Shown here: piece by piece, positions 3,226 through 33,920 of the stretch
How positions within the stretch are numbered: position 1 is the first letter of the stretch
How the letters are laid out: each line of letters starts with the position of its first letter
DNA from: an uncultured Anaerolineaceae bacterium
GTDB taxonomy: Bacteria; Chloroflexota; Anaerolineae; Anaerolineales; DRMV01
Direction: 5' to 3'
NCBI GenBank assembly: GCA_964446575.1
Contig: CAYUOX010000052.1
Coordinates: 180 to 64,179 of the forward strand
Length of the DNA stretch: 64,000 nucleotides
Made by a program: the position numbers and the translations under genes
Notes under the pieces: model-generated
The model's input: the letters and a program-made list of their open reading frames with translations, nothing else
The model's database searches: none
Told to the model about the DNA's origin: nothing

Positions 3226-4389
3226 ATGACCGAAACCTCTGAATTGCAAGCGCTGGTTCAAGAATGGGAGTCCGCCTTAGGGCCCGAAGACCTGGCCAAG
3301 GCCCGCTACCAATTGCGCATGCGAGTGTGGCGGTTTGGAAGCACCCTGCTGCTGGCTGGGCTGCTCGCGCTGCTGTGGCTGCCTACGGGCTGGGCCGTTG
3401 CCCTGCGGGACGCGCTGCGGGCCAACGCCAATGGGTGGCGCACGTGGCTTTACATTCTGCTGCTGGGCGCGATGTCTTCGGCCCTATCCTTGCCTTTGGC
3501 GTGGTGGTTCGAGTTCCGGGTCGAGCAGCATTTGGGCACCTTGCGCCAATCTCTCCGCGGCTGGCTGCGTGATCACCTCAAGCAGGAGGCCCTGGCCGGG
3601 CTGGTGCAAAGCCTGCTGATGACGGGCCTTTACTTCATGTTTCGCCGCTGGCCTGAGCATTGGTTCGTGGGCATCGCCGTGGCTGTGGTGGTCTTCCTGG
3701 TGGTGTATTATCTGCTGCAGCCCGTGTTCTTGCGCTTGCAATACAAAGCCGAGCCGCTGGACGACCCCGATTTGCAGGCGCTACTAAAGGACCTCTTCGA
3801 GCGGGCCGGCGTGCCTTTTGCGGGCCTGGCGGTGCTCAGGGCCAGCGAGAAAACCGCGCGCGGCAACGCCGCGTTGGTACCCAAAGGCGCGGGCACGCAA
3901 GTGGTCGTGTTCGACACCCTGCTGCACGAGTTGAGCCCGCGCGCGTTGGCCGCGGTCGTCGCGCACGAGTTGGGGCACAAAGTGCATCGCGACATGCTGA
4001 AATTGATGCTCGTGCTGGGTGTGAGCCTGCTGGCCGCGCTAAGTCTGGGCTACGGCGTGCTGACCACCGTGGGGTATTGGGATGGCCTTCAGGGGCCCGC
4101 GGACGTGGCGACCTTACCCTTGCTTTGGTTGACTTTGGCTTGGTTGGGCGCGGGCTTGCAGATTTTGCTCAACGCGTATATGCGGCGCATCGAATTCGCC
4201 GCGGATGCGTACGCGCTGACCTTAACCCAAGACCCGGCCGCGTTGGAGGAAGCCTTTCGGGTGTTGGCCCGCCAGAACAAGGCCTTGCCCCAACCGCCCC
4301 TTTGGGTCGAGCGGCTGTTGGACAACCACCCCAGCCTGGCGCGGCGGGTATTGGCGTTGCGTCGAGCCGCGCGGCAAGCCCGCGGCTGA
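3226..4389 (+). CDS. M48-family (Ste24/HtpX-like) membrane zinc metallopeptidase
   Basis: AGGAGG RBS at 3216-3221. 'VVAHELGHKVHRD' HExxH motif, multiple N-terminal TM helices, and a C-terminal 'HPSLARR' motif typical of M48. Confidence 0.85.
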   Translation: MTETSELQALVQEWESALGPEDLAKARYQLRMRVWRFGSTLLLAGLLALLWLPTGWAVALRDALRANANGWRTWLYILLLGAMSSALSLPLAWWFEFRVEQHLGTLRQSLRGWLRDHLKQEALAGLVQSLLMTGLYFMFRRWPEHWFVGIAVAVVVFLVVYYLLQPVFLRLQYKAEPLDDPDLQALLKDLFERAGVPFAGLAVLRASEKTARGNAALVPKGAGTQVVVFDTLLHELSPRALAAVVAHELGHKVHRDMLKLMLVLGVSLLAALSLGYGVLTTVGYWDGLQGPADVATLPLLWLTLAWLGAGLQILLNAYMRRIEFAADAYALTLTQDPAALEEAFRVLARQNKALPQPPLWVERLLDNHPSLARRVLALRRAARQARG

Positions 4390-4488
4390 AGCGGTCGTCC
4401 GTGGCCGCCCTGGCCGAACCATGACGCGCGTCCCAGCCGGGTCGCAGCCGCGCCCCAGCCTGTTGCCAACCGCGGCGTCCACCCTGGA

Positions 4489-4710
4489 GGTGTTCGACAA
4501 TTTCACACGGGGGCACGGAGATCACGGAGGGAAGGAGCGCAGAAAGGGGGGAGGGTATGGAGGGCCGTTGGAAAAGCAAACCGGCGCGAATCTGCCGCGT
4601 TCTCTATTGGCGAGCGCTTCCAGGGAGCGTTTCGCTCCGCGCTGCCGATAGGCCCGGCAGGGTATGGGGCAAAACCACGGCTCACGGCGATACGTCGATT
4701 TTTCAAACCG
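4489..4710 (+). repeat. Dispersed intergenic repeat, copy A (MITE-like, with TIR-like ends)
   Basis: Aligns by eye along its length with 18899-19129 (reverse complement) and 33729-~33920. Conserved blocks are GGTGTTCRANAATTTCAC, CACGGNGANCAC, GGAGGRCCGTTGGRAAAGCAAACC and GGGGCAAAAC. The ends are GGTGTTCGACAATTT and AAATCGACG..TTTTTCAAACCG, an imperfect inverted repeat. Confidence 0.85.
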
Positions 4711-4723
4711 TCTCTGTCCACCC

Positions 4724-4752
4724 TTGACAACCTGGCAAGCCTGTCTTAACAT
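4724..4752 (+). promoter_or_regulatory. Promoter of the MarR gene (TTGACA-17 nt-TAACAT)
   Basis: TTGACA at 4724-4729, a 17-nt spacer, and TAACAT at 4747-4752, 32 nt before the ATG at 4784. Confidence 0.55.
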
Positions 4753-4783
4753 CTAAGCCATCTTAACTTTTGAGGCGGGTGGC

Positions 4784-5230
4784 ATGGCGTCTGGAGAGCC
4801 TTTGACCGAAACCCTTAGCCGGGTCTTGGGGCGAATCATGCACCTGTGGCTGCACGCGTCCCGCCGGTTCGCGCGTGAGCATGGGCTGTCGGTGGGCCAA
4901 CTCATGGTGTTGCGGCAGTTGCAATTTCGCGGGCCGTGCACCGTCTCAGACATCGCCCAACGGATGGGCGTGACCAATGCCGCGGCCAGCCAGGTCTTGG
5001 ACCGCTTGGTTGACCAAGGGTTGGTGGTGCGTCGCGAAAACCCCGCGGATCGACGCAGCAAGTCGGTGGTCTTGACCCCTTACGGCCGCCACGTGCTGGC
5101 TCAGGCCACCCAGTGGCATCAGGCCTGGTTGCGCGAGTTGCTGGGGCGCTTCTCGCCCGCAGAAGCGCAGGTCTTGCGGCAGGCGTTGGAGATTCTGGAC
5201 GCGCACTTGGCCGCGCCCAGCGACGATTGA
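4784..5230 (+). CDS. MarR-family transcriptional regulator
   Basis: Winged-helix MarR signature: 'LSVGQLMVLRQLQFRGPCTVSDIAQRMGVTNAAASQVLDRLVDQGLVVRRENPADRRSKSVVLTPYG'. Confidence 0.9.
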   Translation: MASGEPLTETLSRVLGRIMHLWLHASRRFAREHGLSVGQLMVLRQLQFRGPCTVSDIAQRMGVTNAAASQVLDRLVDQGLVVRRENPADRRSKSVVLTPYGRHVLAQATQWHQAWLRELLGRFSPAEAQVLRQALEILDAHLAAPSDD

Positions 5231-5285
5231 AGACCCGCGGAGCCCTGCCCGCGCGGAGCCCTTCCCCCTGGTTTTTGGAGGAGCC

Positions 5286-6473
5286 ATGACCCCAACTGCG
5301 GATGTGCTCATCATCGGAGCCGGCGTGCACGGCGCCAGTTTGGCTTTTCATTTGGCCCGCCGTGGCGTGCGGGTCGTGGTGTTAGAGCGGCATTTCGTCG
5401 CTGCCGGCGCGACGGGGCGTTCCAGTGGCCTGGTGCGTATGCATTACGACCTGCGTTTGGAAGCCGAATTGGTTTGGGCGTCGTACCCTTACTTTCGGCA
5501 TTGGGATGATCTCGTCGGCGCGGGCGATTGTGGCTTCGTGCGCACGGGCTTCTTGCGCCTGGTGCCGCCCGCGTACGAGGCCGCTTTGCGGGCCAACGTG
5601 CGCATGCAGCAGGAGTTGGGCATCCCAACGCTGTTGGTGCGCGCAGCCGACGTGCAGCGATTGGCGCCTTATCTGCGCACCGACGATTTCGAACTCGCGG
5701 CCTATGAACCCGAGTCGGGCTACGCGGACCCGCCGAGCACGGCCCAGGGCTTCTTGGCGGCCGCGCGGCGTTATGGGGCCGAACTGCACACCGGGGTCAC
5801 CGTGACCCAAATGCTGACCACACCCGACGGCAGCGCAATGCGCGGGGTGCGCACGGCCGACGGCCAGGTCTGGACCGCGTCCCAGGTCGTCCTCGCGGCG
5901 GGTGCATGGGCCCCGCGTTTGGCCGCAACGGTAGGCCTCGAGTTGCCCATGACCACTTGGAGCCATGATGTGATGTTTGTCCGCCGTCCGCGGGGCACCC
6001 GGTGGTCGCCGGCCGACTTGACGCTCATTGACGACATCAACGAGATGTATCTGCGTCCCGAGCGGGGCAATCTGACCTTGGTCGGCTTGGAGGTGGGCAA
6101 CCCTCTGGGCGAGGACCCCGACACCCCCACCGAGCATCCGCACCCAGGGTTTGTCGAGCGCGCCATCGCCCACGTGTTGCGCCGCGTGCCCGCGCTGGAG
6201 GCCGGTTCCCTACACAGCGCGCATCGGGGCTATGATGGCTTGTCTGACGACCAGCGCGCGATCTTGGGCCCCGCCGGCCCCGCGGGGCTGTGGCTCAATG
6301 TGGCCCACAGCGGTACGGGGTTCAAGATCGCGCCCGCGGTGGGCTTGGCCCTGAGCGAGTGGATGCTGGACGCCGCGCCGCGTACTGTGGACATTCGGCC
6401 CTTCGCCTGGACGCGCTTTGCCGAGGGGCGCCCCTTGCGCGCGGAACATCCGTACGCGGATATTTGGCGGTAA
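5286..6473 (+). CDS. FAD-dependent oxidoreductase (DAO / sarcosine-oxidase-beta-like family)
   Basis: N-terminal 'DVLIIGAGVHGASLAFHLARRGVRVVVLE' dinucleotide-binding fold. Product is 395 aa. GGAGGA RBS. Confidence 0.85.
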   Translation: MTPTADVLIIGAGVHGASLAFHLARRGVRVVVLERHFVAAGATGRSSGLVRMHYDLRLEAELVWASYPYFRHWDDLVGAGDCGFVRTGFLRLVPPAYEAALRANVRMQQELGIPTLLVRAADVQRLAPYLRTDDFELAAYEPESGYADPPSTAQGFLAAARRYGAELHTGVTVTQMLTTPDGSAMRGVRTADGQVWTASQVVLAAGAWAPRLAATVGLELPMTTWSHDVMFVRRPRGTRWSPADLTLIDDINEMYLRPERGNLTLVGLEVGNPLGEDPDTPTEHPHPGFVERAIAHVLRRVPALEAGSLHSAHRGYDGLSDDQRAILGPAGPAGLWLNVAHSGTGFKIAPAVGLALSEWMLDAAPRTVDIRPFAWTRFAEGRPLRAEHPYADIWR

Positions 6474-14212: not shown

Positions 14213-14632
14213 ATGACCACGCCATCGTCTGACTGGGAGCATCCTTGGCGTTTGCTGGCCGACGCGCTGCGCACCCTGTGGCGGCTGGGCGCGACCCCAC
14301 GGGCTGTGCGCCGCTTCGTCGTCTTGTATGTCGCCGTCGTGACCGTGTTGGTAGGCCTGGGCAGCGCGTTTTTGCTCATGTTCTTGGGCGTGCTGCGGGC
14401 CTTGTTTTTGGCCGCGCCCCTTTACCCCCGCGTTGCGGCCGGGCTGCGTTGGTTGGGCTGGGAGCCCCCCGCTCGCTTCGACGCCGCCCCCAGCCGTTGG
14501 CGCACCTTGCACACGGCCTTGTGGGTCGTGCTCAGCAGTGCCGCGGTGCTGGCGGGTGGATGGGTGCTGTGGAGCCAGGGCTTCTGCGCCCAAAACTGGC
14601 TTTGCAAACTCGGTTTGTTTTCCGGAGGCTAA
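14213..14632 (+). CDS. Small membrane protein, unknown function
   Basis: GAGGTG RBS at 14205-14210. Three hydrophobic helices. Product is 139 aa. Confidence 0.45.
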   Translation: MTTPSSDWEHPWRLLADALRTLWRLGATPRAVRRFVVLYVAVVTVLVGLGSAFLLMFLGVLRALFLAAPLYPRVAAGLRWLGWEPPARFDAAPSRWRTLHTALWVVLSSAAVLAGGWVLWSQGFCAQNWLCKLGLFSGG

Positions 14633-14693
14633 GACGGTCGCGCGCAGGTGACACGCGAGTTTTGTCGAATTTTACTCCCAGGGGGAGACCGCG

Positions 14694-17357
14694 ATGACTC
14701 TGCCGTCCAATCCCTACATCGCTGGCGAGCCGGTCGGCCGAACGTCCGCGTTCGTGGGCCGTGACGATGTGCTGCGGGAGATTTTGCACATCCTCCGCCA
14801 CCCCGCTCAGAACGCCATTACCCTGTTCGGGCAGCGCCGCATTGGCAAAACGTCCATCTTGCAATGGTTGGAGGTGCACCTGCCCACCCACGGCCCCTAT
14901 GTGCCCGTGTATTTCGACCTGATGGGTTGGGCCGGCCGACCCTTGGCCGAGATTTTGCAAGGGTTGGCCGAAGCGATTGCCCGCACGTTGGCCTTGCAGC
15001 CCCCGCGTTTGGGGGACGCGGCCGAACGGGCCTTCCGGGAAATTTGGTTGCCACATGCGCTGCAGACCCTGGCGCCTGACCAGGTGCTGGTGCTGCTCAT
15101 GGACGAGTTCGACGTTCAGGCCGACCCCGACACGGATCGCCAAATCAAGCATGACTTCTTCCGCTATATGCGCGACCTGCGCCAACTGAACCCTGCCCGG
15201 CTGCAATTCGTCTTTGTGCTGGGCCGTTCGTTAGACGACCTGGACATTGTGGCCCAAGGTCTGTTTAAGGACTTGCCGCACCGTCGGGTGTCGTTGTTGG
15301 ACCGTCACGCGACCGAGACCTTGGTGCGTTTGTCTGAGCGCGAGGGTTCGCTGACCTGGACCGACGACGCGGTGGCGCGCGTGTGGGAATGGACATCCGG
15401 CCATCCCTATTTGACCCAGGCGTTGTGCGCGGAGGTATGGGATGCTGCCTATGACGCGAGCCCTGAACCGCCGCCTGTGACGCCGGAAGCCGTGGACGAC
15501 GCGGTGCCGGGCACGCTGGAGCGTAGCGAGCACATGTTCGTCTGGCTGTGGGATGGCTTAGGTCCGGCCGAGAAGGTGGTGGCCGCCGCGCTGGCGCAAG
15601 CCGGCCCTGGGGTGGTTTCGGCCGAGCAGTTGCGTCGCATTTTGGCCGAAAGCGGGGTGCGCATTCTGTTGCGCGAACTGCAAGACGCACCGCGCATTTT
15701 GCAGTCGTGGGATATTCTGGCCCCGGCCAACGGCGGTTATCGTTTTCAGGTCGAATTGCTGCGCCGTTGGATTGCCGAGAACAAGCCCTTGGGACGCACG
15801 CAAGACGAATTGGACCGCCTCAACCCCGTGGCCGATAGCCTTTATCAGGCCGGCCGGGGACTGTATGAACAAGGCGACTGGCCCCGCGCGCGCGATTTGC
15901 TCCAGCAGGCCTTGGAATTGAACCCTTCGCATATGGGCGCGTTGGAACTGTTGGGTGAGATTTGTTTGGCCCAGGGCGAATTGGATGCTGCCCAGCATTA
16001 TTTAGAGCGTCTGGCTGACTTGGCCCCCGGCCGCGCCCGTTATCGCCTCAAGCAGATCTATCTGAAGCGCGCGGCCCAAGCCGCCACGCTCGAAGAACAA
16101 ATGACGTGGTACGACCGCATTTTGGCCTTGCTCCCCGATGACCCCGACGCGCGCGCGGCCCAAGAGGCGTTGCAACAGGCCCTCAATGAAGAGGCCGAGT
16201 TGGCCGAGCGCTTTGCCCAAGGCCGCGACGCGTTGCAACGCCGCGAGTGGCAGCAGGCCGTCGACGCGCTGCATTGGGTGGTGAGCCGCCGCCCTGATTA
16301 TCGCGAGGGCGCGGTGTGGGCCGCGGCCCTGTTAGCGCAGGCGGTTCAGCGCCAAGCGCGCCAGCCCCGCGGCCGCCGCTGGCCTTGGGCCTTGCTGGGC
16401 CTGGGCCTGGTCGCGCTGGTCTGGGGGTTGCTCTGGGCGCGGTCTGCGCCGCGCGCGGTTCGGTCGACCCCGACGACGGCATCGAGCGCGAGTCGCGATG
16501 GCCTCGCGCGGAGCCCGTCCCCCACTGCCAAGGCCGCGGCCGCACACAGCACAGCATCGCCCACCACGACCGCGACGCACACCCTGACCCCCACGGCCTC
16601 ACCAACGGCCACCCCCGTGCCAACCCCAACCCTGGGCGTGGGCAGTCGCTGGACGCGGCCCGGCGACCGCATGGTGATGGTGTACATTCCCGCGGGCTCT
16701 TTTCTCATGGGCAGCGAGTCGGGCGATGCGGACGAGCGGCCTTTGCATCAGGTGCAATTGGACGCGTTTTGGATGGATCGCCACGAAGTGACCAATGAGA
16801 TGTATCGGCTGTGCGTGAGCGCGCGGGTGTGCGAGCAGCCCGCGGTGCTCGGGGCCTTCGAGGACCCACGCTACGCGGATTACCCGGTTGCGTATGTGTC
16901 GTGGTATGACGCGCAAACGTATTGTCAGTGGATGGGTGGGCGGTTGCCCACCGAGGCCGAGTGGGAGTACGCGGCGCGCGGGGGCTTGGAGGGGATGATG
17001 TATCCGTGGGGCAATGAGGAGCCGGTGTGCACGCCGCATGCGCCCAACGGCGCGCAGTATCGGGCCTGTGGCACGGAGTTGGCGCCGGTGATGACGTATG
17101 GGCCCAACGGTTATGGCCTGTTTGACATGGCCGGCAACGTGTGGGAATGGGTGATGGACTGGTATCAGGCCGACTATTATCGGGTGTCGCCGGTGCGGCA
17201 ACCTTTGGGGCCTGAGTTTGGGGTGGCGCGGGTGCTGCGCGGGGGCAGCCGCATCAATTACGCGCTCGAACTGCGTGTAGCCAACCGCTCGTGGAACACT
17301 CCCGCGACCAAGCGGGGTTATATTGGCTTTCGTTGTGTGCGCCCGATGTGGCCATGA
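14694..17357 (+). CDS. Multidomain STAND-like ATPase: P-loop NTPase + wHTH + TPR repeats + TM helix + Ser/Thr/Pro linker + SUMF1/FGE-sulfatase-like domain
   Basis: Walker A 'GQRRIGKTS', Walker B 'VLVLLMDEFD', and 'SGHPYLTQAL'. TPR-like helices span about residues 390-560. TM segment 'WPWALLGLGLVALVWGLLWA'. C-terminus 'YIPAGSFLMGS...YVSWYDAQTYCQWMGGRLPTEAEWEYAARGG...AGNVWEWVMDWY...VLRGGS...GFRCVRP'. Confidence 0.85.
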   Translation: MTLPSNPYIAGEPVGRTSAFVGRDDVLREILHILRHPAQNAITLFGQRRIGKTSILQWLEVHLPTHGPYVPVYFDLMGWAGRPLAEILQGLAEAIARTLALQPPRLGDAAERAFREIWLPHALQTLAPDQVLVLLMDEFDVQADPDTDRQIKHDFFRYMRDLRQLNPARLQFVFVLGRSLDDLDIVAQGLFKDLPHRRVSLLDRHATETLVRLSEREGSLTWTDDAVARVWEWTSGHPYLTQALCAEVWDAAYDASPEPPPVTPEAVDDAVPGTLERSEHMFVWLWDGLGPAEKVVAAALAQAGPGVVSAEQLRRILAESGVRILLRELQDAPRILQSWDILAPANGGYRFQVELLRRWIAENKPLGRTQDELDRLNPVADSLYQAGRGLYEQGDWPRARDLLQQALELNPSHMGALELLGEICLAQGELDAAQHYLERLADLAPGRARYRLKQIYLKRAAQAATLEEQMTWYDRILALLPDDPDARAAQEALQQALNEEAELAERFAQGRDALQRREWQQAVDALHWVVSRRPDYREGAVWAAALLAQAVQRQARQPRGRRWPWALLGLGLVALVWGLLWARSAPRAVRSTPTTASSASRDGLARSPSPTAKAAAAHSTASPTTTATHTLTPTASPTATPVPTPTLGVGSRWTRPGDRMVMVYIPAGSFLMGSESGDADERPLHQVQLDAFWMDRHEVTNEMYRLCVSARVCEQPAVLGAFEDPRYADYPVAYVSWYDAQTYCQWMGGRLPTEAEWEYAARGGLEGMMYPWGNEEPVCTPHAPNGAQYRACGTELAPVMTYGPNGYGLFDMAGNVWEWVMDWYQADYYRVSPVRQPLGPEFGVARVLRGGSRINYALELRVANRSWNTPATKRGYIGFRCVRPMWP

Positions 17358-17423
17358 TTTTCTGCCACGGGCGAGGGTGAGGGGCACCTCAGGCGGCCCA
17401 GGCCGCCCAACACAGGAGGCAGC

Positions 17424-18707
17424 ATGACCAATCCGTTCATCTTTGGCGACCCGGTCCGCGCAGCCGATTTTCTGGACCGGGAGCGGGAACTGCGCCGCTT
17501 GCGCGACCGCATCTTGCGAGGCGCGTCGGCCATTGTGACCGCGGCGCCGGGCATGGGCAAGACCTCGTTGTTGTTGTATCTGGACGAAGCCCGTACGACC
17601 GTCTTTGGTCCCACGGCCCAGGGGTGGGTCTTCCACTTTTTGGATGCTTACACCATGGCCGGTTGGGACACGGCCGCGTTCTGGCGTGAGGCCTTGGAAC
17701 CGCTGGCCGCGTGTTCGCCGGCCTTGCAAGGGGCTTATCGGGCCGTGTTGGCCGCGGCCGACGATGTGTCGGCCCTGGAAGCCTTGTTCGAGCAGGCCGC
17801 AGCCGAGGGGCGGCGCCTGGTTTTGCTGCTCGACGAGTTCGAGGCCTTGTTGCACGAGCCTGGGCTGCATCGCGGACGGTTCTATGGCGTGTTGCGGTCT
17901 TTGGCGTCTCGGTTTGTGTCGTTTTCGCTGGTTTTGTCGTCGCGGCATTCGGCTGCCGAACTCAACGAGCGCACGCGCGATTTCGCCCAAGGCTCGCCTT
18001 ACTTCAACTTCGCGTCGGAGGTCACATTGCGGCCTTGGCCTATGCGAGCCGTCGACGCGCTGCTGCGCCGCGGCCAAGACCGCCTGGACGCGGCCGACCA
18101 AGCCTTTATCAAGCGCATCGCGGGGCGCCATCCGTATCTGTTGCAGGCCGCGGCCTATTATTTGTGGGACATGTATGAGGACGAAACCGGCCCCCTGGGG
18201 CGCCGCGAACGGGCTGGCCGAGAGTTTTTCGCCGAGGTCGCAGAGTCGCTGCTGCAAGACATTTGGCTCTCGTGGACGCCCTACATGCAAATGGCCTTCA
18301 CCTTGGTCGGCCTGGAGGACATGAGCGCGCATCTCCCCGACGGGCGCTCGTTCGACATTCGGGCCTTGCTGCGCGACCTGCCTCACTTGGCGCCTGAAAT
18401 GCGCAAGTTAGAGCAGCGCGGGTTTGTGCGCCCCGCACCGGACCGCGCTGTGGGCTACGCGCCCCAAGCCGAGGTCATGGTCTGGTACTTGGCTGAAACG
18501 CTAACCCGCGCGCTGCGGCCCGAAGGGGTGGATCTGGCCGCCTGGCTGGCCGCCCAAGAGTGGCAAGGCCTGCTGAAACGCGGCGAAATGCAAGCCCTGC
18601 AGCGGGCCTTGAACCGGGTCGGCGGGGTGTTGCAAGAAGGCGTGACTTTGCTCATCCGCGCCGCGGCTGAGGGCGCGGCCAACCGTTTGCGCGGGGGCGC
18701 GGCCTGA
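17424..18707 (+). CDS. STAND-like P-loop ATPase with C-terminal winged-helix region (paralog of the N-terminal module of the 14694 gene)
   Basis: 'NPFIFGDPV...FLDRERELRRL' parallels 'NPYIAGEPV...FVGRDDVLREI'. Walker A 'APGMGKTS', Walker B 'LVLLLDEFE', and 'GRHPYLLQAA'. AGGAGG RBS. Confidence 0.8.
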   Translation: MTNPFIFGDPVRAADFLDRERELRRLRDRILRGASAIVTAAPGMGKTSLLLYLDEARTTVFGPTAQGWVFHFLDAYTMAGWDTAAFWREALEPLAACSPALQGAYRAVLAAADDVSALEALFEQAAAEGRRLVLLLDEFEALLHEPGLHRGRFYGVLRSLASRFVSFSLVLSSRHSAAELNERTRDFAQGSPYFNFASEVTLRPWPMRAVDALLRRGQDRLDAADQAFIKRIAGRHPYLLQAAAYYLWDMYEDETGPLGRRERAGREFFAEVAESLLQDIWLSWTPYMQMAFTLVGLEDMSAHLPDGRSFDIRALLRDLPHLAPEMRKLEQRGFVRPAPDRAVGYAPQAEVMVWYLAETLTRALRPEGVDLAAWLAAQEWQGLLKRGEMQALQRALNRVGGVLQEGVTLLIRAAAEGAANRLRGGAA

Positions 18708-18898: not shown

Positions 18899-19129
18899 GG
18901 CTGTTCGAAAAATCGACGAATCGCCCTGAGCCGTGGTTTTGCCCCCTGCCCTCCTGGGCCCATCCGCAGCGCTGAGCGGAATGGCCCTCCGAAATCGCGC
19001 ACACAAAAAGAAAGCGGCTGATTCACGCTGGTTTGCTTTCCCAACGGCCCTCCAGGCCCTGGAGGGCCTCCTTTCTTCTCTTCTTCACCCCGGTGCTCTC
19101 CGTGGCCCCGTGTGAAATTCTTGAACACC
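18899..19129 (-). repeat. Dispersed intergenic repeat, copy B (inverted orientation)
   Basis: Its reverse complement aligns with copy A over the whole length, including both ends (GGTGTTCAAGAATTTCAC ... TCGTCGATTTTTCGAACAGCC). It contains the extra palindrome GGCCCTCCAGGCCCTGGAGGGCC at 19046-19068. Confidence 0.85.
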
Positions 19130-19140
19130 CCCGTTAACCG

Positions 19141-19169
19141 TTGACCCGACGGGCGAACCCGCCTACAAT
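19141..19169 (+). promoter_or_regulatory. Promoter (TTGACC-17 nt-TACAAT) giving a probably leaderless mRNA
   Basis: TTGACC at 19141-19146, a 17-nt spacer, and TACAAT at 19164-19169. The ATG at 19177 lies only 7 nt after the -10 box and has no SD. Confidence 0.55.
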
Positions 19170-19176
19170 TGCTGCC

Positions 19177-21564
19177 ATGGCCGACTTTTTCGCCTGGTAT
19201 GCCCTGATCACGTTGGCCGGCTGGTTGGCGCTGCCGCTGGTGTGGCGCTTGTGGCCTGGCCTCCCTTCGCGGGGGTATCCGTACGCGCGGCCGGTGGGCT
19301 GGCTGCTGTGGGGGTTCGTCTACTGGTGGCTGGGCACCTTGGGTTTGGCGCGGCCCGGCGCAGGCGGCGCGTGGGCCGCGGGAGGACTGCTGTTGGGCTG
19401 CGCGGCCCTCGTGTTGGCACGACCGCGCGTGCGCGACCGTTTGCGCGCCTGGTTGCGGGCGCATTGGGCCTTGGTGGGAACCACCGAGGTGGTCTTCGCG
19501 GTGGCCTTCGCGGGGTGGGCCTTGGTGCGCGCGGCCGCGCCCGATATTGTGGGCACCGAAAAGCCCATGGAGTTGGCCTTCATTCAGGCCCTTTTGCGCA
19601 GCGAGGCCTTTCCGCCGCACGACCCTTGGCTTGCGGGGTACGCGATTTCTTACTATTACTTCGGCTATTTGCTCACCGCTCTGCTGGCGACGCTGGCCGG
19701 CACGCCGGGCCCGGTGGCGTTCAATTTGGCCGTGGCCCTCACCTTTGGCTTGGCCGCCAGCAGTGCCTATGGGTTGGGGTATGACCTGTTGGCTCCCCGC
19801 CTGCGTCCGCGCCCCGCGCGCGGGTGGGCCCTGCTCACGCCGCTCATGGTGCTGGTGGTGAGCAACTGGGAGGGCTTGCTCGAAGTGCTCCATCGTCGCG
19901 GCGTGTTTTGGCGCGGGACCACCTCGTCCTTTTGGGCCTGGCTGGACATTCTCAACCTGAACGAACCGCCGACCGGCACATCGTGGCCCCCACGCTTTTG
20001 GTGGTGGTGGCGGGCCAGCCGGGTGCTGCACGACACCTCCCTGAGCGGCGCGCACCAAGAAGTTATCGACGAATTCCCCTTCTTTTCGTTCCTGTTGGGC
20101 GATCTGCACCCTCATGTGTTGGCCATCCCCTTTGGGATGGTTGCGTTGGCGTTGGCGTTGCACCTCTATCGGCGGGGGACAGGCTTCGCGCGGGGCCGGC
20201 TGGGGTATCCGTGGCCTCATCTGGTGTTTTGGGCCGTGGTGTTGGGGGGGCTGTCCTTTTTGAACACATGGGACTTTCCTCTTTATGTGGCCTTGGCCGC
20301 GGCCGCGTGGGGGCTGCATGTGCGCCACCGCGGTGGTTATTGGCGCGCGGCCGCGCAGGAGGCGGCCCGTTGGGCTGTGACGGTGGGGCTGCTGGGGGTG
20401 GGGCTGTACTTGCCCTTCTACCTGGGCTTTGGCTCGCAAGCGCGCGGCTTTTTGCCCAACTTGCTCAATCCGTCTCGGGGCGCGCATTTGTGGGTGATGT
20501 TTGGCCCTTTGTGGGTGCCGCTGGCGTTGATGTTGGCCTTGGCCGCGCGGCGGGCCTCCTGGGCTGCGTTGGGGCGCGGGTTCGCCGCGGCCGCGGGTGT
20601 GACCGTGGGCCTGGCCGCGCTGGCGTGGCTCATGGCCGGCATCATGGGCCTCTTGCCCGCGGGCGACGCGTATCTCAGCCTGTACGCCGCGGCCGACATG
20701 GCCACCTTGGCCCGCGAGGCCTTGGCCCGGCAGGCGCGCGCGGTGGCCGGGCCGTTGACGTTGCTGCTGTTGGGCGGCTTGGCCGTGGGCCTGCTCCTCG
20801 CGGGTCGTGAGACGCGCGCGCAACGCGGCGGGGCCCGGCCCCAACCGGAGGGTTTCCCCCTGTTGTTGATCGCCTGGGGAGCGCTATTGGTGCAGGTCCC
20901 CAATTTCGTGTATTTGTGGGACCATTTCGGCACCCGCATGAACACGGTGTTCAAGTTTTACTACCAGGCTTGGCAGTTGTGGGCGGTGGCCGCGGCGTAT
21001 GCGTGGGTGTGGTTGGCGCGGCAGCGCTGGGCCTGGGTGCTGACCGGCTTGGCCGTGGCCGCGGGGCTGGTGTATCCGGCGTTGGCTTTGCCCGAGCGCG
21101 CGGCCCACTTTCGGCCGCCCCAGGGGTGGACGTTGGACGGGAGCGCGTGGCTGCAGCGCACCAACCCTGACGATTGGGCCGCGGCACAAGCCTTGGCTCG
21201 TGCGCCTTTGGGCACGTTGGCCGAGGCCGTAGGGGGGAGTTACTCGGAGTACGCGCGGCTGAGCACTTACAGCGGCCAGCCCGCGGTGGTGGGATGGCTG
21301 GGCCACGAGGGGCAGTGGCGGGGAGGTTACGCCGAGGTGGGCACGCGGCCGCAAGACATCGAGCGCCTTTACACCACCCGCAATTGGGAGACCGCCCGCG
21401 CCATTTTGGAGCGCTACGGCATTCGCTATGTGGCTTTGGGCGATCTGGAGCGGCGGACCTACGCGGCGCAGCCCGATTTGTGGGAGCGCCATTTGGTGGT
21501 GTGGTGGCGCCAAGGCACGACCACCATCTATTATTGGGCCCCCGAGGTTGCGCCCACGCGGTGA
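19177..21564 (+). CDS. DUF2298 'YYY' integral membrane protein (Chloroflexi/Archaea family, GT-C-like)
   Basis: 'DPWLAGYAISYYYFGYLL' YYY motif. More than 15 predicted TM helices. Product is 795 aa, with a soluble C-terminal domain. Confidence 0.85.
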   Translation: MADFFAWYALITLAGWLALPLVWRLWPGLPSRGYPYARPVGWLLWGFVYWWLGTLGLARPGAGGAWAAGGLLLGCAALVLARPRVRDRLRAWLRAHWALVGTTEVVFAVAFAGWALVRAAAPDIVGTEKPMELAFIQALLRSEAFPPHDPWLAGYAISYYYFGYLLTALLATLAGTPGPVAFNLAVALTFGLAASSAYGLGYDLLAPRLRPRPARGWALLTPLMVLVVSNWEGLLEVLHRRGVFWRGTTSSFWAWLDILNLNEPPTGTSWPPRFWWWWRASRVLHDTSLSGAHQEVIDEFPFFSFLLGDLHPHVLAIPFGMVALALALHLYRRGTGFARGRLGYPWPHLVFWAVVLGGLSFLNTWDFPLYVALAAAAWGLHVRHRGGYWRAAAQEAARWAVTVGLLGVGLYLPFYLGFGSQARGFLPNLLNPSRGAHLWVMFGPLWVPLALMLALAARRASWAALGRGFAAAAGVTVGLAALAWLMAGIMGLLPAGDAYLSLYAAADMATLAREALARQARAVAGPLTLLLLGGLAVGLLLAGRETRAQRGGARPQPEGFPLLLIAWGALLVQVPNFVYLWDHFGTRMNTVFKFYYQAWQLWAVAAAYAWVWLARQRWAWVLTGLAVAAGLVYPALALPERAAHFRPPQGWTLDGSAWLQRTNPDDWAAAQALARAPLGTLAEAVGGSYSEYARLSTYSGQPAVVGWLGHEGQWRGGYAEVGTRPQDIERLYTTRNWETARAILERYGIRYVALGDLERRTYAAQPDLWERHLVVWWRQGTTTIYYWAPEVAPTR

Positions 21565-33728: not shown

Positions 33729-33920
33729 GGTGTTCGAAAATTTCACCCGGGGACACGGTGAGCACGGCGGGAGGGAGTACAGAAAGGGGATTTTAGGGCA
33801 TGGAGGACCGTTGGAAAAGCAAACCGGCGTGAATTTGCCCCTTTCGCGATTTGCGCGCGATTCTGGGGGCGTTCTGCTCCGCGCTGCGGATGAGCCCGGG
33901 AGGGCATGGGGCAAAACATG
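33729..33920 (+). repeat. Dispersed intergenic repeat, copy C (3'-truncated or diverged)
   Basis: Aligns with copy A from GGTGTTCGAAAATTTCAC through GGGGCAAAAC. Similarity is lost after ~33918, near the 3' end of the GT39-like gene. Confidence 0.8.

Follow-up and report, generated by a model that had tools for sequence, protein, structure and literature searches.

A conserved two-gene unit of paralogous STAND-like ATPases, one with a predicted transmembrane helix and a non-catalytic FGE-like domain, in an uncultured Anaerolineaceae bacterium

Introduction

Operons of two STAND genes have been described by computational analysis. Kaur, Iyer, Burroughs & Aravind 2021 (eLife 10:e70394; PMC8195603, Fig. 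6C) report a two-gene operon of the form '[X]+STAND+wHTH -> STAND+wHTH+TPRs+effector', in which wHTH denotes a winged helix-turn-helix and TPRs are tetratricopeptide repeats. In this nSTAND2 ('MNS-like STAND') operon each of the two proteins has an arginine finger, a toroidal hetero-multimer is predicted, and one partner has eroded NTP-binding motifs (PMC8195603). The accessible part of its source table lists Proteobacteria and one Calditrichaeota protein, with HEPN or GT4 effectors (PMC8195603). This operon is the closest described system to the pair of adjacent genes studied here, which lies on a 64,000-nt stretch of DNA (the window) from an uncultured Anaerolineaceae bacterium (contig CAYUOX010000052.1, positions 180 to 64,179). 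Gene 1 encodes a STAND-like ATPase followed by TPRs, a predicted transmembrane (TM) helix and a domain resembling formylglycine-generating enzyme (FGE), and gene 2 encodes a stand-alone paralogue of the ATPase module. The families of gene-1-like and gene-2-like proteins are called F1 and F2. The starting point was an earlier reading of the sequence made without database searches, hereafter the original prediction.

A second line of work concerns sensors in which a STAND core is fused to an FGE-sulfatase (FGS) domain of C-type-lectin fold. STAND-FGS fusions of conflict systems have NACHT, nSTAND1, Npun2340/2341, KAP or AP-GTPase cores and often include effector-associated domains (EADs) and diversity-generating retroelements (DGRs) (PMC7159879; PMC8195603). 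STAND/C-type-lectin 'antigen sensors' are targets of DGRs in multicellular bacteria, and a periplasmic location is predicted for some of them (Dore et al. 2023, bioRxiv 10.1101/2023.09.22.558884). The text of the 2026 Nature STAND survey (PMC13581612) mentions neither two-gene nor Chloroflexota nor AAA_35 systems.

The pair described here is a strongly conserved two-gene unit of apparently active paralogous NTPases. Taken as a whole, we moderately favor the picture of a sensor-plus-helper pair of STAND NTPases with a transmembrane receptor, of the conflict or defense type. To our knowledge, each of the bacterial STAND/NLR-like immune proteins characterized so far is a lone cytosolic polypeptide that detects phage proteins within the cell. 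Paired sensor/helper NLRs occur in plants and animals, as in RGA5/RGA4, RRS1/RPS4 and NAIP/NLRC4.

Comparison with described systems

The pair shares its general layout with the nSTAND2 operon: two adjacent, co-directional genes for STAND plus winged-helix proteins, one partner with TPRs and a variable C-terminal domain, and the other short and limited to STAND+wHTH, sometimes with one more domain. In both cases a hetero-oligomer is predicted and the unit is mobile, with a varied genomic context, and many members of the present families show weak nSTAND2 similarity. However, both partners here keep Walker A and Walker B, whereas the published nSTAND2 site reads 'VLVTPP----LTDASS', and the long partner usually has a predicted membrane span followed by a binding domain outside. 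Effectors, where present, often lie on the short partner, and Pfam detected no HEPN or GT4 domain in either window protein or in the relatives scanned, whereas the published HEPN and GT4 domains are on the TPR-bearing partner. The hosts are mainly Chloroflexota, compared with Proteobacteria and one Calditrichaeota protein in the accessible part of the published table. Filing the pair under nSTAND2 was considered and rejected: in hhalign the one published sequence compared, WP_094198012.1, matched the F1 and F2 profiles with a probability of <1%, although the GxP regions align. Neither window protein reaches the cut-off of Pfam PF20702 (nSTAND2).

That STAND NTPases are coupled to FGE-like sensor domains was known from comparative work (PMC7159879, PMC8195603), as the original prediction stated. 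Like the published STAND-FGS sensors, gene 1 has a C-terminal FGS domain without enzymatic residues, of a kind proposed to bind invader molecules. Both groups prefer multicellular bacteria and are associated with DGRs (here in one relative, with reverse transcriptase, template repeat and variable region), and some published lectin domains are likewise predicted to be periplasmic. In contrast, the published sensors are single-NTPase proteins, usually with an N-terminal effector or EAD. The core here belongs to another STAND family, near SSO1545, AAA_35 and ATPase_2; TPRs lie between NTPase and TM helix, a paralogous partner gene is obligatory, and the window copy has no DGR within 64 kb. The original prediction had called the pairing of a transmembrane protein with a stand-alone paralogue uncharacterized, which was too sweeping, since two-STAND operons, STAND-FGS fusions and periplasmic STAND/C-type-lectin sensors are all published. 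The parts and the logic, including the concept of a STAND with a non-catalytic FGE-fold sensor, are thus already known. We did not find descriptions of the family itself, of its obligatory active-active pair of paralogues, of the TPR/TM/ectodomain layout, or of effectors on the short partner.

Two further comparisons are instructive. In the paired NLRs of plants and animals, linked paralogous genes divide the work, one performing recognition through variable integrated domains and the other output, and the pair described here may be organized in a similar way. There is no orthology, however, the eukaryotic proteins work in the cytosol while a membrane-spanning sensor is predicted here, and the proposed division of labor is drawn by analogy. 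With Avs3 and Avs4 (8dgc, 8dgf) the pair shares a STAND fold match and the logic of a C-terminal sensor combined with NTPase-driven oligomerization. Each Avs, however, is one polypeptide, in which an N-terminal nuclease or protease is the effector and a TPR-like sensor recognizes phage proteins in the cytoplasm.

Two adjacent genes encode paralogous STAND-like ATPases

The two open reading frames (ORFs), of 887 and 427 aa, are located exactly where the original prediction had placed them (Table 1). It had also listed motifs common to both proteins, and these are present. Gene 1 has NPYIAGEPV near its N-terminus, Walker A GQRRIGKTS, Walker B LVLLMDEFD and GHPYLTQ; the counterparts in gene 2 are NPFIFGDPV, AAPGMGKTS, LVLLLDEFE and RHPYLLQ. 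Only the Walker A consensus that it gave, GxxGxGKTS, is imprecise, since the pattern is GxxxxGKTS in gene 1 and AxxGxGKTS in gene 2. A G[HG]HPYL motif is conserved in both families at the position expected for the STAND helical domain. K52, D137 and E138 are invariant in 27 members of the gene 1 family; throughout F1 and F2, the Lys of Walker A and the Asp-Glu of Walker B vary little or not at all. Judged by these residues, both ATPases look active.

Gene 1 and gene 2 share 27% identity over 274 aa (BLASTP, E 0.001), and the F1 and F2 family profiles align with a probability of 99.7% over 333 columns (hhalign, E 4.9e-26). Because these columns extend across the nucleotide-binding, helical and winged-helix parts, the paralogy spans the whole module. 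On the strength of these alignments the two are paralogous P-loop NTPases, as originally proposed.

Pfam places AAA_16, AAA_22 and ATPase_2 at aa 20-180 of gene 1 and TPRs at aa 380-450; of the ATPase models only AAA_16 reaches its cut-off, with 33.1 bits against 32.6 when the N-terminal 400 aa are searched and 29.9 bits for the full-length protein. Gene 2 matches AAA_16 and marginally passes nSTAND1 (27.8 bits, cut-off 27.1), and it remains below the cut-off on AAA_35, NACHT and nSTAND2 (19.1 bits vs 24). These matches of the window proteins to sequence models are only borderline; the wider families give a consistent picture. All 24 F2 members match AAA_35 and 14 match nSTAND2 at E<1e-3 (best 1.4e-12), while among 27 F1 N-termini there are matches to ATPase_2 and AAA_16 in 25, to AAA_35 in 16, to nSTAND2 in seven (E<1e-3, best 1.3e-8) and to nSTAND1 in six; the best AAA_35 match among family members is at 4e-13. 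A PDB profile search with the gene 2 family returned only P-loop noise (E>0.1).

AlphaFold2 models built from ~120-sequence alignments had pLDDT 92.7 and pTM 0.90 for gene 2, and pLDDT 93.9 for aa 1-565 of gene 1. In Foldseek searches of the PDB with gene 2, the archaeal Walker-type ATPases PABY2304 (2qen) and SSO1545 (2fna) lead, followed by ORC/Cdc6, MalT (8bob), Avs4/Avs3, tomato NRC3 and Drosophila Dark. With gene 1, the top matches include 2qen, 2qby, the P. horikoshii STAND-TPR protein 6mfv, and 2fna. The STAND matches (2fna, 2qen, 8bob, Avs3/4, NRC3, Dark, 6mfv) all have a probability of 1.0. Normalized to target length, the TM-scores against 2qen are 0.71 (gene 1) and 0.60 (gene 2), and those against 2fna are 0.62 and 0.56. 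These two best structural matches have the same order of nucleotide-binding, helical and winged-helix domains, and 6mfv has the same NTPase-then-TPR order. At 13-16% identity, however, all three are distant, and they are soluble, single-gene proteins of no known function without a TM helix or ectodomain. SSO1545 is reportedly among the founders of the MNS clade of STAND in the work of Leipe and colleagues (2004).

ORC/Cdc6 and other AAA+ proteins score like STANDs, so the fold by itself cannot separate a STAND from an ORC-like AAA+. We nevertheless rejected a replication role of the ORC/Cdc6 type: the fold scores are equal, but the TPR/TM/ectodomain architecture, the nSTAND/NACHT-type profile matches and the lack of a DNA-binding context do not fit. 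The models and profiles together support both proteins as STAND-like ATPases with a nucleotide-binding domain, a helical domain and a winged helix. This agrees with the original prediction, and neither profile nor fold searches assigned the ATPase to a housekeeping family. We have high confidence in the structural description of the pair as a whole. Beyond the NTPase, gene 1 continues into TPRs and ectodomain as its repeat and sensor region, and gene 2 has only a short helical extension (aa ~370-424), in which W374, L375, G387, E388, G406, I411, A415 and G417 are invariant or nearly so.

Gene 1 carries a predicted transmembrane helix and a non-catalytic FGE-like domain

Gene 1 contains one strongly hydrophobic 19-mer, PWALLGLGLVALVWGLLWA (aa 564-582, Kyte-Doolittle mean 1.84), with a net charge of +5 in the N-side flank and +3 in the C-side flank. 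A TM segment precedes the FGE domain at the corresponding place in 10 of the 12 homologues of the FGE type, and many F1 proteins have a single hydrophobic helix at ~aa 570-650 before the last domain, with 6-10 helices in others. The hydropathy peak and its recurrence thus bear out the proposed membrane segment. It is followed by a linker (aa 583-660) in which 53 of 78 residues are Thr (17), Ala (14), Ser (11) or Pro (11). The order of TPRs, single hydrophobic helix, Ser/Thr/Pro/Ala linker and FGE-sulfatase domain agrees with that read initially, as judged by Pfam, hydropathy and composition.

PF03781 matches aa 662-883 over model positions 5-255 of 255 (215.7 bits, E 1.1e-63), and the PDB FGEs 6muj and 2q17 are matched at E ~5e-46. 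When gene 1 is aligned with the Streptomyces FGE 6muj, 'RGGSYLCHDSYCNRYRV' aligns to 'RGGSRI---NYALELRV'. In alignments to 6muj, 2q17 and 6s07, the catalytic loop is 3 residues shorter and both Cu-binding catalytic Cys are replaced, and the Cys pair of RGGSxxCxxxxC is missing from 12 of 12 homologous FGE-like domains. The loss of the catalytic pair had been foreseen; the accompanying description of the domain as cysteine-less was wrong, as it contains six Cys (707, 713, 744, 779, 792, 881). Between the conserved 'RGGS' and 'GFRC', the 12 domains are hypervariable in sequence. Gene 1 falls far below the cut-offs of the NCBIfam equivalog models for EgtB, SenA, PvdO and GldK. A PorK/GldK role for the domain was also rejected, as it scores 151 bits against a cut-off of 350 (NCBIfam) and there are no gliding or type IX secretion system genes nearby. 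The FGE/C-type-lectin-fold domain of gene 1 is a non-catalytic module that most likely binds a ligand, and it is predicted to lie outside the cytoplasm. The missing Cys pair, the hypervariable stretch and its targeting by a DGR in one relative (see below) speak for a ligand-binding ectodomain rather than an enzyme, as the original prediction had it.

About 55 of the best 120 matches to full-length gene 1 carry PF03781. Relatives with the ATPase-TPR-FGE arrangement (P0246, P0247, P0254, P0261, P0285, P0298) are named 'SUMF1/EgtB/PvdO family nonheme iron enzyme' by NCBI and 'formylglycine-generating enzyme required for sulfatase activity' by JGI. These names are probably misleading, since the domains examined lack the catalytic Cys pair.

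The pair is conserved as a two-gene unit

One genome per GTDB species was scanned with the gene 2 alignment, giving 287 tblastn-confirmed stretches, and 80 loci were fetched. ORFs, each starting at the first start codon after a stop (longest ORF), were assigned to F1 or F2 with family hidden Markov models, and a pair was defined as F1 and F2 on the same strand within 2.5 kb. A lack of conservation as neighbors in other genomes had been named beforehand as a refuting outcome; instead, 58 of the 81 related loci, which come from different species, hold F1 and F2 as a pair. The order is F1->F2, as in the window, in 33 pairs and F2->F1 in 25, the latter in a more distant clade. In 43 of the 58 pairs the two ORFs are <100 nt apart or overlap as called, and start calling probably accounts for the larger overlaps. 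Of the 23 loci without a pair, most have a contig end close to the gene and three have both modules in one protein; only ~2-4 unpaired loci have sufficient flank on both sides and yet no partner.

Natural F1-TPR-F2 fusions occur at four loci (L002, L045, L082, L084), one of which (L002) encodes the F1 nucleotide-binding module, TPRs and F2 in a single protein of 974 aa, followed by another F2; the L045 fusion is 866 aa long. No further gene family regularly accompanies the pair, the commonest one in the flanks occurring in 6 loci. Neighboring genes are wholly different from locus to locus, and on one contig an integrase adjoins the pair. Three gene 2 homologues that were examined have a gene-1-like protein directly upstream on the same strand, with TIR, a second gene-2-like module and WD40 as the C-termini. 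These observations show a conserved two-gene unit, and we consider physical coupling of the two proteins very probable.

Chloroflexota (Anaerolineae, Caldilineae, Ardenticatenia, Promineifilaceae) are rich in homologues of both the gene 1 N-terminus and gene 2, as are Beggiatoaceae, cyanobacteria and a few other groups; the sampled taxa are mainly filamentous Chloroflexota, Beggiatoaceae, cyanobacteria and myxobacteria. In a library of 1.84 billion proteins, the F2 family comprises 780 clusters at 50% identity (E<=1e-30).

Some loci show additional features. Arrays of several F1/F2 genes are present in Okeania sp. (L082, 1945-13301, up to eight family ORFs), in Aetokthonos hydrillicola (L080) and at L066, L079 and L081, which suggests local amplification of the module in cyanobacteria and Chloroflexota. 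At L012 a PD-(D/E)XK nuclease gene (3421-4260; PDDEXK_3, E 2.9e-49), which may be inserted or accessory, separates F1 from F2, where other loci have a gap of <100 nt. Short tandem repeats lie 5' of or between the pair genes at L020 (6766-6954 and 1284-1376), L063 (6588-6839) and L012 (3123-3490 and 4342-4489), with units of 48, 42, 46 and 74 nt and a related copy at the start of the L020 F1.

A diversity-generating retroelement targets the ectodomain of a relative

At L020, from an Anaerolineales metagenome-assembled genome, a DGR lies between F1 and F2. Its reverse transcriptase is encoded at 4082-5365 (RVT_1, E 2.6e-18), and a 93-nt template repeat (5736-5828) has 80% identity to the 3' end of the F1 FGE domain (3998-4090), the variable region. 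All 19 mismatches (19/19) fall on adenines of the downstream (template) copy, which is the signature of a DGR. By this signature, the DGR targets the C-terminus of the F1 FGE-like ectodomain. Reverse transcriptase-like sequences are also found at two other loci, as a fragment right after F1 at L070 and as an ORF at the contig end of L060. For gene 1 itself, the C-terminal stretch is 68% identical to that of the closest relative and the rest of the domain 73%; thus, the gene in the window is not demonstrably diversified.

The C-terminal domains of F1 and F2 vary

F1 C-terminal domains were assigned by Pfam scans of representatives, as BLAST clustering merged most of them through TPR similarity. 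In these proteins the NTPase and TPRs are constant and the downstream part is exchanged (Table 1). WD40, BNR/sortilin, Big_2 and lectin-like ends are often preceded by a TM helix. F2 proteins are mostly bare, at ~420-440 aa, with a few variants that carry additional domains. Binding domains cluster on F1, while effector and adaptor domains are mostly on F2 and sometimes on F1. Thus, the variable ends point to a division of labor between F1 and F2. Kaur et al. 2020 (PMC7159879) and 2021 (PMC8195603) tie domains of the TIR, NUDIX, CHAT, EAD7 and bDLD1 types to conflict systems of multicellular prokaryotes.

Table 1. Coordinates of the gene pair and associated features in the window, and loci with the various end domains of F1 and F2.
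Feature	Locus	Position	Strand	Basis
Gene 1 (F1), 887 aa: nucleotide-binding module, TPRs, TM helix, linker, FGE-like ectodomain; candidate sensor-arm STAND protein	window	14694..17357	+	ORF, translation, Pfam
Gene 1 aa 1-375: nucleotide-binding, helical, winged-helix module	window	14694..15818	+	AlphaFold2, Foldseek, motifs, invariant residues
Gene 1 aa 376-560: TPR-like helical repeats	window	15819..16373	+	Pfam TPR_16, TPR_19, TPR_2; all-helical in AlphaFold2 model
Gene 1 aa 564-582: predicted single TM helix PWALLGLGLVALVWGLLWA	window	16383..16439	+	hydropathy, flank charge, recurrence in homologues
Gene 1 aa 583-660: low-complexity Thr/Ala/Ser/Pro linker	window	16440..16673	+	composition
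Gene 1 aa 662-883: FGE-sulfatase (C-type-lectin-fold, 'FGS') domain without catalytic Cys pair	window	16677..17342	+	PF03781, FGE alignment
66-nt intergenic spacer; AGGAGG 7 nt before gene 2 ATG	window	17358..17423	+	sequence
Gene 2 (F2), 427 aa: stand-alone paralogous STAND module with conserved C-terminal helical extension, aa ~370-424	window	17424..18707	+	Pfam, AlphaFold2, Foldseek
Terminator-like hairpin: 10-bp stem, 8 G-C pairs, T-rich tail, ~340 nt 3' of gene 2	window	19046..19068	+	consensus scan only
F1 C-terminus FGE-like	12 loci: window, L006, L012, L020, L023, L024, L035, L046, L056, L063, L070, L071			Pfam
F1 C-terminus WD40 propellers	L004, L008, L029, L051, L054, L066, L068, L073			Pfam
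F1 C-terminus sortilin/BNR propeller	L081			Pfam
F1 C-terminus Big_2	L076			Pfam
F1 C-terminus 3-keto-disaccharide-hydrolase (lectin-like) fold	L074			Pfam
F1 C-terminus NUDIX	L058			Pfam
F1 C-terminus RelA-type TGS-ACT	L059			Pfam
F1 C-terminus CHAT and another STAND	L069			Pfam
F1 C-terminus TIR	P0001			
F1 C-terminus solute-binding (periplasmic) domain	P0346			
F1 C-terminus chloride-channel/CBS	P0270			
F2 variant with DUF559 nuclease	P0130			
F2 variant with inserted EAD7	P0167			
F2 variant with Metallophos and bacterial Death-like domain 1 (bDLD1)	L061			
F2 variants with Ser/Thr kinase	L066 (twice), L079, L081			

Proposed mechanism

We propose that the two genes form a single self-contained and horizontally mobile module. 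Gene 1 would be a bitopic membrane receptor in the N-in/C-out orientation, with the ATPase and the TPR array in the cytoplasm and one helix across the membrane. This orientation is suggested by the lack of a signal peptide, the large cytoplasmic ATPase and the +5/+3 flanking charges, and a stalk and a six-Cys domain suit an extracytoplasmic place. The Ser/Thr/Pro-rich stalk would display the FGE/C-type-lectin-fold domain outside the cell, where it may bind its ligand; an invader or another cell probably supplies this ligand, as a glycan or a surface protein. The signal would then travel via the helix and the TPR array, lifting auto-inhibition of the ATPase and permitting exchange of ADP for ATP.

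The ATP-bound module of gene 1 is envisaged to nucleate a hetero-oligomer with the gene 2 protein, much as a sensor NLR recruits a helper NLR, and the gene 2 protein would provide the output. In relatives this output could come from a fused kinase, a nuclease, a phosphoesterase with a Death-like adaptor, or an EAD7 adaptor. In the window copy it would have to come from the conserved C-terminal helices of gene 2, from gene 1 helices that cluster and act on the membrane, or from a partner that is not genetically linked.

Alternative explanations

Several observations weigh against this sensor-plus-helper picture. The window copy is a plain member of the family, with no effector, no DGR in 64 kb and no defense-island context. 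Scans with Pfam, NCBIfam and PADLOC found no recognizable effector domain in either of its proteins, as had been noted from the sequence, and PADLOC-DB 2.0 gave no significant match for either; the best scores, mad8 (E 0.00049) and PDC-S27 (E 0.0016), belong to a range of 5e-4 to 2e-3 covering short P-loop stretches only. The pair is surrounded by ordinary metabolism and membrane genes, and the defense-island setting raised by the original prediction did not materialize for this copy. A repeat search, tblastn with the L020 reverse transcriptase and sensitive blastn with the gene 1 3' end found no template repeat or reverse transcriptase in the 64 kb, and an intact DGR lies near only 1 of the 12 FGE-type loci, blastn of the 11 others having found a template repeat only at L020. 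At least one FGE-type relative, at L056, has no TM segment, so that an FGE-like domain can evidently work in the cytoplasm too. Finally, the topology of gene 1 is predicted from hydropathy, flanking charge and conservation only, the roles of sensor and helper are assigned by likeness to paired NLRs, and the physical association of the two proteins is something we infer.

Much of this would also be expected of an ordinary signal-transduction receptor, in which a membrane-spanning STAND switch would respond to a cue from the environment or from other cells (such as a polysaccharide or peptide) and regulate physiology or development in filamentous bacteria. The absence of a toxic effector and of PADLOC matches, the housekeeping-type neighbors, the solute-binding, chloride-channel/CBS and RelA-type TGS-ACT ends of some F1 proteins, and the Ser/Thr kinases of some F2 proteins, also typical of signaling, are all in keeping with it, as is the fold match to MalT (8bob), a STAND that acts as a regulator. 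Set against this are relatives with TIR, CHAT, NUDIX, DUF559 nuclease, EAD7 and bacterial Death-like domains, the DGR-driven hypermutation of the L020 ectodomain, the unrelated contexts of different loci (one with an adjacent integrase), and an extreme shuffling of domains among close relatives, all of which is typical of conflict systems. We therefore regard ordinary signaling as an unlikely, if serious, alternative, and lean modestly towards a conflict or defense role. That the pair is a plain member of the published two-gene nSTAND2 operon (Kaur et al. 2021), differing only in its C-terminal domain, is improbable. The grammar is the same ('[X]+STAND+wHTH' beside 'STAND+wHTH+TPRs+[Y]') and over half of the F2 and about a quarter of the F1 proteins match the Pfam model. 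However, the defining trait, an eroded NTP-binding site in one partner, is not seen in F1 or F2; gene 2 stays below the model's cut-off and gene 1 does not match it, the published sequence has no significant profile match to either family, and the accessible part of the source table, with its HEPN/GT4 effectors, has no TM, FGS or Chloroflexota entries.

The C-terminal domain of gene 1 could conceivably be an enzyme, making gene 1 an ATP-regulated extracytoplasmic modifying enzyme. Its strongest matches are to true FGEs, and NCBI gives full-length relatives an enzyme name, but both Cu-binding Cys are absent together with part of the loop, the pair is lacking in all homologous domains, the equivalog models score far below their cut-offs, and the corresponding C-terminal stretch is hypervariable and targeted by a DGR, as suits a binding surface rather than an active site. 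We consider this reading very improbable. Equally hard to credit, if not harder, is that the genes are paralogues from a local duplication that act alone with no functional coupling. The window copy by itself offers only adjacency and 27% identity, but conservation already contradicts this view: the genes are adjacent in both orders across phyla, natural fusions exist, and the families are deeply diverged yet always paired with one of each type.

Significance of the pair

If the sensor-plus-helper picture is true, it adds to bacterial STAND systems an obligatory pair of active paralogues, parallel to the sensor/helper NLR pairs of plants and animals, and a transmembrane layout with the recognition domain outside the cell, built on a lectin-fold domain that is open to retroelement diversification in the family. 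A broader proposal, which we put forward only tentatively and hold to be rather doubtful, is that such pairs are 'outside-in' NLR-like two-chain surface receptors, innate and in places adaptive-like, in which a membrane-spanning sensor STAND detects a ligand outside the cell by means of an exchangeable ectodomain, hypermutated by DGRs in some lineages, and activates a paralogous cytoplasmic helper STAND. They would then be distinct from all cytosolic systems of the Avs and bNACHT types and from the inactive/active nSTAND2 pair.

The family is large and cleanly delimited, and is concentrated in little-studied filamentous Chloroflexota, Beggiatoaceae and cyanobacteria. Recognizing its dozens of full-length gene 1 look-alikes corrects a systematic mis-annotation as nonheme iron enzymes, and the natural fusions and effector-bearing relatives are concrete constructs for studying how two STAND modules cooperate.

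Transcription unit and surrounding genes

The AGGAGG in the spacer before gene 2 is a Shine-Dalgarno sequence, and a terminator scan of the spacer found no convincing terminator between the genes, which are likely co-transcribed, going by the sequence. The hairpin 3' of gene 2 (Table 1) may mark the end of the two-gene unit, although as evidence it is weak. A protein identical to the gene 1 product is present in public assemblies.

Directly 5' of gene 1, on the same strand, lies a small ORF (14245-14697, +) whose longest-ORF call overlaps the gene 1 start codon; the public record has 126 aa at ~14252-14632. It has no Pfam match. Directly 3' of the pair is a gene for a large DUF2298 membrane protein (19141-21564, +; E 2e-105), which a comparison of flanking families did not find beside the pair at other loci. 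The neighbors in the window also include a radical SAM enzyme, a glycosyltransferase, a YqeC/MobA protein and an ABC-2 permease. Rfam gave no match anywhere in the 64-kb window. An element of ~190 nt, consisting of three contiguous direct-repeat blocks, is present in two copies (4489-4675 and 33729-33917) that lie 29.2 kb apart and share 82-85% identity.

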